Source of the DNA: Patescibacteria group bacterium
GTDB lineage: Bacteria; Patescibacteriota; Dojkabacteria; J137
Length of the DNA: 64,000 nucleotides
Reading direction: 5' to 3'
NCBI GenBank assembly: GCA_963169855.1
Contig: CAUJCN010000001.1
Span: 17,828 to 81,827, forward strand
In this document: in pieces, positions 22,478-24,371 of the stretch
How the letters are laid out: every line of letters starts with the position of its first letter
Position numbering within the stretch: the stretch's first letter is position 1
Made by a program: the position numbers and the translations under genes
Notes under the pieces: generated by a model
What the model was told of the DNA's origin: nothing
Database searches by the model: none
What the model saw: the letters and a program-made list of their open reading frames with translations, nothing else

Positions 22478-23044
22478 ATGAAACGACTAATAAACTTCCT
22501 ATTTGAAATCGGAACACTTCGAAAAATCGCACGATCACACAGACAATCATTCCTAACTGATGATCTTTCAGACAACATCGCATCTCATTCGTACAGAGTT
22601 TCAGCAATTGGATACCTTCTTGCAAAACAAGAAAACGCTGATTCTGGAAAAGTATTAAAAATGTGTGTTTTCCACGATATTGGAGAAACAAGAAGTGGAG
22701 ATCAGAATTGGATTAACAAAGGTTATGTTAAAGTTTTCGAAGACGAAATTCTTAATGACCAACTAAAAGATTTGACGCAAGATAACGAGCTTCTTGACTT
22801 GATGAAAGAATATCAGAAAAGAGAATCATTAGAAGCTAAGATTACTAAAGATGCGGATACATTAGATCAACTTCTACTTGAACTCGAATACGCTCAACGA
22901 GGTAACAAGCTTGCACAAGAATGGGCTGATGATACTCTCAATAGAAATTTGTTTACTGAATCTGCAAAGAAATTTCGAGAAGAAATTCTAAAAACAAAAC
23001 CAAGCGATTGGATAATGTATCACGAAGAAAGGAGAACTAACTAA
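22478..23044 (+). CDS. HD-domain phosphohydrolase (YfbR-like 5'-deoxynucleotidase family)
   Basis: HSYRVS ... FHDIGETRSGD ... D: HD-domain metal ligands in YfbR-like spacing. 188 aa. Confidence 0.6.
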   Translation: MKRLINFLFEIGTLRKIARSHRQSFLTDDLSDNIASHSYRVSAIGYLLAKQENADSGKVLKMCVFHDIGETRSGDQNWINKGYVKVFEDEILNDQLKDLTQDNELLDLMKEYQKRESLEAKITKDADTLDQLLLELEYAQRGNKLAQEWADDTLNRNLFTESAKKFREEILKTKPSDWIMYHEERRTN

Positions 23045-23075
23045 GGCTCTTCTTTTTCGATTTCAATTCCTCCTT
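22994..23075. repeat. direct repeat copy A (35-bp identical core acaaaaccaagcgattggataatgtatcacgaaga plus ~45 bp similar tail) matching 24279..24371
   Basis: Seen by eye. Covers the 3' end of the HD gene and the atttcaattcctcctt segment. Confidence 0.7.
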
Positions 23076-23146
23076 CTAGAAAAAAGACCCTTGGAGCAAG
23101 GTTTCAGGAATGGGCTACAACAAAAACTCTGCTCGTTCTAATTGCT

Positions 23147-23716
23147 GTGTTACAAGTAATAATGATTTTGTTGATTATCAATCCAGTATCAATGTTTCAG
23201 CAATTTCAAAATAATCAGTTAATAAACGAAGTAAAGGGAAAAGTAGAGATAACTTCTTCCGAAACTCCAGTAATTGCAACTGTTACTAATGCAGATGAAC
23301 TTAGAAATGCTAATGGAGCTCAAGCCCAGATTTACAAGGATGCAGAGGCAGGAGATTATGTTTTAGGATACTCTGATAGATTGATTATTTATAGAAGATC
23401 TACAGGAACAATAATCTATGACGGAGTTACTCCTTCTGGGTTAGTTAACGAAGCACAAACACGAATCATCGAAACAATAACAACCAAAGCAAAGGACATG
23501 AGAGTTATTTCTGCAAGCTCTACAGAGGTTCCTCAGATTTCTATAATTACAGATGTGGATACTTTAAAGACCAACGATCCAGCATTTTACGCAAATGCAA
23601 AAAACAATGATATCGTTGGATTATTCGCAAGTGCACAAGTTATCGTTCTCTACAGTCAAGAATCGGAGTCCATTATTAACTCTGGAAAATACGCAACTTC
23701 AATTCAACAAATATAG
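23147..23716 (+). CDS. hypothetical protein with N-terminal hydrophobic segment (inside repeat-flanked cassette)
   Basis: 189-aa ORF. Confidence 0.4.
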   Translation: MLQVIMILLIINPVSMFQQFQNNQLINEVKGKVEITSSETPVIATVTNADELRNANGAQAQIYKDAEAGDYVLGYSDRLIIYRRSTGTIIYDGVTPSGLVNEAQTRIIETITTKAKDMRVISASSTEVPQISIITDVDTLKTNDPAFYANAKNNDIVGLFASAQVIVLYSQESESIINSGKYATSIQQI

Positions 23717-23722
23717 AGGGAA

Positions 23723-24070
23723 TTAGCTTTCTCTATTAGATAAGTATTTAGCATTAATACTACCTAACAAAGCATTACCGTCTTTAGTAAGAGATACTTC
23801 TGTATATGCACCTTCATGTTTATCATCAGTTAGTTTTTGTATTTCAGTTCTTAAAAATATAATCTCTTCTGGGAGTAAGTTTTGATCCTCTTGGCTATTC
23901 AAAGTAATGCATCTCTTTAGAAAATCCTCAACCTCTTGATACTGTTGTCTTGTTTTGGGGGAAAATCTATTTCTCACATCTACTAAAAAATACATTCTTC
24001 CTTCAAAATTTAGACCTACAGGCCTAAAACTACCATCATTTCCTCCTAAATTTCTTATTTTACTATCCAT
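23723..24070 (-). CDS. hypothetical protein (inside repeat-flanked cassette)
   Basis: 115-aa ORF. Confidence 0.4.
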   Translation of the reverse strand: MDSKIRNLGGNDGSFRPVGLNFEGRMYFLVDVRNRFSPKTRQQYQEVEDFLKRCITLNSQEDQNLLPEEIIFLRTEIQKLTDDKHEGAYTEVSLTKDGNALLGSINAKYLSNRES

Positions 24071-24278
24071 TCTAAAGTGTTAACAATATATGGCGGCATT
24101 ATACCACATTTAAGAAGTAATTTTAAAGTTTGTTAAATTCACTAGTTAATTCAATTTAACTGATATAATCCATCCAATTATAACTGCCTAAAATGACTGA
24201 CAAGATACAAGAACCTCTTCTGGTCGAAGATTTGTACGAAAAATTAGCTAATCATATAGCTGAATTAGTTTTTAAAAG

Positions 24279-24371
24279 ACAAAACCAAGCGATTGGATAA
24301 TGTATCACGAAGAGAGAAGAAATAATTAAGCTTCTTCTTCTTCTTTTTCTTTTTCTATTTCAATTCCTCCT
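24279..24371. repeat. direct repeat copy B; contains an in-frame remnant of the HD-gene C-terminus (KTKPSDWIMYHEERRNN*)
   Basis: Identical 35-bp core and similar tail. The tail overlaps the 3' end of 24326..24973(-). Confidence 0.7.

Follow-up and report, generated by a model that had tools for sequence, protein, structure and literature searches.

A 1.2-kb insert between diverged copies of a convergent gene junction in a Dojkabacteria genome, resembling a scar of recombination with DNA from a related strain

The DNA analyzed here, referred to below as the window, is a stretch of 64,000 nucleotides (nt) from a Patescibacteria group bacterium of the Dojkabacteria (GTDB lineage J137; assembly GCA_963169855.1, contig CAUJCN010000001.1, positions 17,828 to 81,827 of the forward strand). 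An insert of about 1.2 kb in this window was flanked by two direct repeats of about 90 bp, each a copy of the tail-to-tail junction between an HD-domain hydrolase gene and a convergent gene for an orphan protein of 215 amino acids (aa). The two copies differed mostly at synonymous positions, and one gene of the insert was truncated exactly at the repeat edge. The insert has the look of a scar left by ordinary recombination in which a related strain supplied the DNA, rather than of a mobile element of a new kind. In the explanation favored here, given a probability of roughly one half, circular DNA that carried an allelic form of the junction was integrated by a single crossover in a 35-bp core of the repeats, via host recombination.

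Anatomy of the repeats

The core, ACAAAACCAAGCGATTGGATAATGTATCACGAAGA, was identical at 22994–23028 and 24279–24313 on the forward strand. Exactly two copies were present in the window, compared with none expected in shuffled sequence even when up to three mismatches were allowed. A repeat search around the core returned an 87-nt pair with 83% identity, and blastn aligned 22986–23078 with 24270–24375 (79% over 106 columns, E = 2e-21) without finding a third copy within the window. The MAFFT alignment of the copies was a mosaic: 35 identical bases are followed by a diverged patch at the stop codons and by a CTT/T-rich tract with a 12-nt indel, beyond which ~30 nt match at ~93% identity (two mismatches). 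These three analyses agree that the perfect 35-bp repeat with ~45 bp of similar flanking sequence, reported in a preliminary description of this DNA, is real. Further copies of the core were found neither in the window nor in GTDB genomes, JGI metagenomes and IMG/VR, where a codon-degenerate pattern of the core had no additional match either.

The left copy (22986–23079, +) comprises the 3′ end of the HD gene and a remnant of the 3′ end of a 215-like gene. The HD gene itself (22478–23044, +; 188 aa) is intact, with its last 18 codons inside the repeat. It matched Pfam HD_3 (5e-24; 85.5 bits against a cut-off of 22.5), and its C-terminus aligned with the conserved DWW..KRR end of 15 orthologues, the expected pattern DW..(K/E)RR being present, so that both the domain and the C-terminus are those of HD_3/YfbR-like HD phosphohydrolases. 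On the minus strand of the left copy, positions 23041–23079 encode the last 12 codons of the 215-like remnant, LEGGIEIEKEEP, and a stop codon that overlaps the HD stop (CTAA). The left-type junction sequence contains GAAAGGAGAACTAACTAAGGCTC.

The right copy (24270–24375, +) has the complementary composition. It contains a dead HD 3′ remnant (24276–24329, +), which reads KTKPSDWIMYHEERRNN and a stop in the HD frame and has an in-frame TAA just before it, together with the live 3′ end of the 215-aa gene. The latter (24326–24973, −) is intact and convergent with HD, and its stop overlaps that of the HD remnant (TTAA). The minus-strand C-terminus reads LEGGIEIEKEEP in the left copy and LKGGIEIEKEKEEEEA in the live gene, each followed by a stop, and the overlapping stops lie within ACTAAGG on the left and ATTAAGC on the right. 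What is repeated is the complete junction at which the two genes meet tail to tail. Because each copy holds both 3′ ends with overlapping stops, the ancestral state was probably an HD gene directly abutting the 215-aa gene. The in-frame HD remnant next to the convergent gene had been recognized correctly before; the statement that the repeat duplicates the 3′ end of the HD gene holds as well but was incomplete, since the minus-strand remnant shows that the 3′ end of the 215-aa gene is also duplicated.

Divergence of the two copies

Ten substitutions separate the copies; seven of them are synonymous when each is read in the frame of its own gene end. The HD frame has four synonymous changes and one non-synonymous change, and the 215 frame has three synonymous and two non-synonymous changes plus a TAG/TAA stop-to-stop change. 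One substitution is silent in both frames, as the same nucleotide distinguishes AAC from AAT in HD and TAG from TAA in the 215 frame. The 12-nt indel preserves the frame. The Nei-Gojobori method gave proportions of synonymous and non-synonymous differences of 0.47 (pS) and 0.04 (pN), with dN/dS of ~0.06 (Fisher P = 6e-5). When 11 substitutions (the two-frame site counted twice) were placed at random, about 2–2.6 synonymous changes were expected, and the probability of at least eight was 6e-5 to 3e-4. For neutral drift of one copy, with an expected synonymous share of ~0.33–0.4, a hand estimate gave P of ~0.01–0.03. The differences were also unevenly spread: the core had 0/35 and the positions beyond it had 9/54 (P = 0.01), or ~17% divergence.

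Because the changes are mostly synonymous in both gene frames, the indel is in frame and a stop remained a stop, the pattern suggests that the copies diverged as functional gene ends in separate lineages, and not in place as a target-site duplication. Given the contrast between core and surroundings, the exchange probably took place in the longest identical block, which makes the left core (22994–23028) and its perfect counterpart on the right the presumed crossover zone.

The same pattern makes it unlikely that the DNA was captured in place, at a staggered break or by replication template switching, with a target duplication of ~90 bp that drifted afterwards. Such an event would agree with the microhomology of 2–5 nt at both insert junctions and with a random-looking fragment containing a cut gene. 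However, drift predicts non-synonymous changes and damage to the frame, contrary to the silent majority of changes, the retained stop and the in-frame indel, and it does not predict identity in the core next to divergence elsewhere. Moreover, the truncated gene of the insert had no excess of amino-acid change, though a repeat divergence of ~17% implies a long time. Of the insertion with target duplication that was proposed initially, the insertion at the HD 3′ end with target sequence on both sides stands, whereas a simple duplication is disfavored.

Content of the insert

The left part of the insert is occupied by the 5′-truncated gene of a membrane-anchored protein (23078–23716, +). It belongs to a family of ~236-aa proteins (P0123–P0130, ~233–265 aa) with a basic N-terminal tail, one transmembrane (TM) helix and a C-terminal domain of ~170 aa. 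Homology of the window copy to the family starts at RKKTL (23078), directly after the repeat edge, and identity was 37–82% by BLASTP and 37–77% in alignment A4 (54–77% to the six closest members and 37–43% to the two most distant). The TM helix and the C-terminal domain are retained, and the first 21–24 codons, including the start codon, are absent, which identifies the window copy as a truncated member of the family. The open reading frame (ORF) is open back to the HD stop and in frame with HD; its first canonical start, the GTG at 23147, falls midway through the TM helix, and the ATG at 23192 is the one chosen by gene callers and gives a 174-aa protein (P0122). The preliminary description had portrayed a two-gene cassette. 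Its second gene, described below, is indeed complete, but the cassette is not self-contained, since its first, 189-aa gene is this truncated form of a conserved gene.

The ~170-aa domain had no Pfam match. An AlphaFold model (mean predicted local distance difference test score of 83) contained the TM helix and two similar alpha/beta subdomains, and had no match in the PDB. In relatives labeled Candidatus Dojkabacteria, Saccharibacteria or Patescibacteria, the full gene usually lies just downstream of giant LamG/DUF2341 surface proteins (loci L010:947–1657, L014:8001–8702 and L016:8001–8720, compared with 23078–23716 in the window). In the closest relative, 4 bp separate it from a downstream Exo_endo_phos gene, whose orthologue in the window (83% identical) is at 8344–9132, 15 kb from the insert. 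The window contained no second copy of the ~236-aa family, and none of the 13 genomes with loci of this family had homologues of the HD, 115-aa, 215-aa, 207-aa, 150-aa or 155-aa proteins there. Since the left gene is truncated at the repeat edge and its family sits elsewhere in relatives, the insert appears to be a relocated chromosomal fragment without complete genes at its borders. Compared with intact orthologues, the truncated copy had no excess of unique amino-acid changes (17 vs. 15 and 18 vs. 20); synonymous sites were saturated relative to the nearest relatives, so that dN/dS gives no date for the truncation.

A 5′ remnant of the family at the presumed old site upstream of 8344 was sought and rejected, as an unrelated, apparently frameshifted ORF occupies this space. 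The latter (7929–8290) resembles, by eye, a small DUF1801/YdhG-type protein, and the apparent frameshift at a run of eight A (~8122–8129) may reflect either a pseudogene or a homopolymer sequencing error.

The second gene of the insert is a complete 115-aa orphan (23723–24070, −). Neither this ORF nor the 189-aa ORF had a match in Pfam, NCBIfam, PHROGs or PADLOC that would point to a cargo function. Among 1.84e9 representative proteins, the 115-aa protein found itself and otherwise only weak matches to a short motif of large repeat proteins. Upstream of this gene is a promoter-like site, TTTAAA-18-TGnTATAAT (24098–24127, −), a consensus match in a sequence in which the number of such sites equals the shuffle expectation. 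A 35-codon ORF (24193–24300, +) extends from the insert into the right core and may be the remaining stub of a gene that the right junction interrupted; it had no homologue in any fetched locus. Base composition of the insert was the same as that of the flanks, without any anomaly. An origin of the arrangement by tandem duplication was rejected, the insert genes being unrelated to HD or the 215-aa gene.

Proposed integration of circular DNA

In the favored explanation, the HD gene (+) and the 215-aa gene (−) would have stood tail to tail with overlapping stops before the event. The incoming DNA would have been a circle from a related lineage, made up of an allelic copy of the ~90-bp junction, ~17% diverged outside the core, and ~1.19 kb of other chromosomal DNA, namely the truncated ~236-aa-family gene, the 115-aa orphan with its promoter-like site, and ~200 bp more. 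A single reciprocal crossover within the longest identical stretch, the 35-bp core, would then have integrated the circle in the manner of Campbell. The resulting order would be the HD body, core, a donor-type post-core arm with the dead 215-like remnant, the insert, a donor-type pre-core segment, core, the resident post-core arm and the 215-aa gene. Both flanking genes would remain intact, the end of the HD protein changing from ...ERRNN to ...ERRTN. As the insert encodes no recombinase, the exchange would have relied on host recombination, either RecA-type or RecA-independent between short repeats, or on an enzyme supplied in trans. This model accounts for the direct repeats, the hybrid nature of the copies, the intact flanking genes and the lack of an element-encoded enzyme.

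The microhomology of only 2–5 nt at the joints between repeats and insert suggests an earlier illegitimate join, or deletions. The junction fragment may have become attached to the rest of the insert when an illegitimate insertion occurred earlier in the donor lineage; alternatively, deletions may have trimmed a merodiploid that was originally larger.

Several points weigh against this explanation. The model itself leaves the attachment of the junction fragment to the truncated gene unexplained. A donor-type junction, an empty site or a circular form was not found in the GTDB, JGI metagenome and IMG/VR collections searched. An identity of 35 bp is short for efficient RecA recombination. The putative allelic origin of the copies is read from 10 substitutions in ~90 bp. 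Finally, the single sequence that links the two sides across the core is the 245-kb NCBI contig, in which the HD protein (P0002) ends in RRTN.

Comparison with known elements

Signatures of mobile elements were sought in the insert and around it. The insert and the other window ORFs tested (a part of all ORFs) contained no integrase, transposase or other recombinase domain detectable by Pfam, in line with the absence of an integrase reported for this locus before. The insert ends had no terminal inverted repeats, no transfer RNA genes were found, and no phage, PHROG, viral or defense signal was found. The repeats had no Rfam match, and their folding was no better than that of shuffled sequences (z = +2.05, +1.46, −0.22, and −0.80). 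In both copies (23030–23053 and 24315–24338), the purine-rich HD end (...EERR) can pair with the pyrimidine-rich run that is antisense to the acidic tail of the 215-aa protein; the resulting small hairpin, centered on the overlapping stops, was likewise no better than in shuffles. A weak terminator-like hairpin, CCTTGCTCCAAGG followed by GTCTTTTTTC, was seen at the left insert edge inside the truncated ORF (23089–23101, −), and was absent from the orthologous sequence at L014.

The insert lacks features that define islands with their own integrase, transposons and integron cassettes. Like insertion sequences and other transposons, it is surrounded by direct repeats of target sequence; however, these are ~90 bp long and 79–83% identical rather than 2–15 bp and identical, and, unlike transposons and miniature inverted-repeat transposable elements, the insert has neither a transposase nor terminal inverted repeats. 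An integron gene cassette would carry an attC site, whereas here there are no inverted repeats at the ends, no fold better than in shuffles and no Rfam match.

More is shared with integrase-encoding islands and prophages located at the 3′ ends of genes or tRNAs, namely an identical core within longer repeats, the 3′ end of a gene as target, a preserved reading frame and a remnant of the displaced gene end. As in attachment sites, the 35-bp perfect core lies in ~90-bp repeats at the end of a gene, and the HD ORF is intact. A remnant or satellite of a site-specific integrative element, with the repeats as attL and attR, the core as the crossover site, a surrogate HD 3′ end and an integrase that was lost or acted in trans, would therefore explain the restored reading frame, and synonymous divergence in the HD frame is also what a surrogate gene end borne by an element should have. 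This origin nevertheless has a low probability. In contrast to such elements, no integrase domain was found among the ORFs tested, the insert is tiny (1.2 kb) with a border that cuts a conserved gene, and there was no viral or PHROG signal. In addition, the dead 215-like remnant is shaped by selection, with three synonymous changes and a stop-to-stop change against two non-synonymous changes, and an in-frame indel, whereas an attachment arm needs no such selection. Both arms look like a chromosomal junction that was once functional, and not like a dedicated attP.

The nearest documented analogue is the H47 genomic island of Escherichia coli, which has long imperfect attL/attR repeats and no recombinase, and which is excised as a circle and re-integrated by unidentified host functions independently of RecA (PMC5426353). 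In common with it, the present insert lacks a recombinase of its own and is flanked by imperfect direct repeats that are long and contain blocks of identity; passage into and out of a circle by host functions, seen in H47, may apply here. The insert is smaller (1.2 kb compared with 13 kb), and it contains a truncated gene and no recognizable cargo function. Two convergent genes contribute their 3′ ends to its repeats, and mobility, observed directly for H47, is at most a possibility here.

Some resemblance also exists to scars of homology-facilitated illegitimate recombination, such as those in the effector-immunity arrays of the Vibrio type VI secretion system (T6SS) and in Rhs and contact-dependent inhibition (CDI) loci, which likewise combine a diverged incoming allele at a conserved segment with a displaced gene-end remnant beside new DNA (PMC5361080). 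For the present locus, a linear fragment from a relative would have been anchored by its HD 3′ end and joined at the other end just upstream of the resident core. The evidence of allelic divergence fits this equally well, there is TAAAA microhomology at the right joint, and transformable bacteria provide documented cases of this mechanism, which has also been put forward to explain displaced T6SS gene ends in Vibrio (PMC5361080). On balance, the chances of such an origin are slim. Its usual outcome is replacement or insertion and not a complete second copy of the anchor, and the donor would already have had to carry a truncated 215-like end fused to a truncated ~236-aa-family gene. Unlike the orphan gene ends of Vibrio T6SS and Rhs/CDI loci, moreover, the insert contains no recognized toxin or immunity gene. 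Because direct repeats preserve two full copies of the junction, integration of a circle by a single crossover fits better than a Vibrio-type scar. By analogy, the insert resembles either a recombinase-less, repeat-flanked islet or a scar left by the uptake of DNA from a relative.

Independent assemblies

All four arms of the repeats were recovered at 100% identity in Logan contigs (k = 31) from at least six runs of two accession series (ERR10655377–82 and SRR24928191). These contigs break exactly k − 1 (30) nt into the core, with the left flank extending to 23023, the insert covering 22999–24308 and the right flank starting at 24284. The sequences are real, and every sampling of the organism includes the second copy of the core. 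Breakage in the core is inevitable for a k = 31 graph, in which the integrated form looks the same as a circle together with an empty site.

It is accordingly conceivable that an empty HD/215 junction and a separate 1.29-kb circle, or a second strain, were mis-joined at the 35-bp repeat, since the graphs of all runs fit an empty site plus circle equally well. Such an artefact, whether of assembly or of the population, is nonetheless very improbable. The 245-kb NCBI contig and the RRTN end of P0002 join the HD body to a left-type arm, and the flanks were 100% identical across runs, among which no second-strain contigs occurred. Modern assemblers usually work with k-mers and reads longer than 35 bp, which also counts against an artefact at a repeat of this length.

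No more credible is the reverse history. In it, the left copy would be the original, joining the HD end to the 5′ region native to the ~236-aa-family gene, and the right copy would have arisen secondarily as a duplication of ~90 bp, its antisense strand being recruited to encode the C-terminal tail of the 215-aa protein. A left plus-strand frame, FSISIPPS, is faintly like FQSAIPSN of P0125 and a tblastx match reaches 23054, but the N-terminal tail is barely conserved even among true orthologues, DNA identity to L014 is near background here, two separate rearrangements would be needed, and the synonymous bias of the dead right remnant in the HD frame would not be accounted for.

Implications

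The kind of event considered here is known, while the instance is new and comes from a poorly studied phylum, with an uncharacterized cargo; no new mechanism or function is implied. If correct, integration by crossover would provide a small, clean case of a change of gene content in uncultured, Dojkabacteria-like Patescibacteria with reduced genomes, brought about by recombination with DNA of a diverged relative and without a dedicated mobile-element enzyme. These episymbiotic bacteria are thought to take up DNA, and such cases inform how episymbiotic lineages acquire and shuffle genes. The analysis also indicates that the pattern of substitutions between flanking repeats, here mostly synonymous in the frames of the source genes, can separate the recombination of two alleles from the duplication of one target.

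A farther-reaching idea, rather improbable at present, is that the insert represents a minimal, recombinase-less mobile islet of candidate-phyla bacteria, which would loop out of and into the HD/215 junction of related strains purely by means of the ~90-bp repeats, carrying with it whatever DNA lies between them. More speculative still, the truncated membrane-protein ORF, which is in frame behind a single HD TAA, might continue to be expressed by re-initiation or read-through.

Genomic neighborhood

The window is otherwise ordinary chromosome, with purA, def, Sua5/TsaC, PFOR genes and ATP-binding cassette (ABC) transporters. The nearest orthologues of the HD protein, at 65% identity, occur in a NUDIX-HD-CYTH neighborhood, unlike the context in the window. 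Here, the HD gene lies amid eight ORFs of 115–215 aa without a convincing Pfam match (20189–25932). An AlkZ-like gene borders this run on one side and an ABC transporter on the other, and the run may be a variable region specific to the lineage. The 215-aa gene in this run had no homologue in any collection searched; the 115-aa gene likewise lacked homologues, and so did the 207-, 150- and 155-aa genes of the run in the fetched loci. A second HD_3/YfbR-like paralogue (226 aa) was found at 52184–52864 and is only ~26% identical to the HD gene at 22478.

Further downstream (55199–62952), a 1551-aa ORF (56221–60876, −) stands between a PFOR beta-like gene (TPP_enzyme_C/PFO_beta_C) and a POR alpha/gamma gene. 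This giant gene thus lies within what is normally an oxidoreductase operon, and a giant Peptidase_S74 protein from a relative was weakly similar to it by tblastx.

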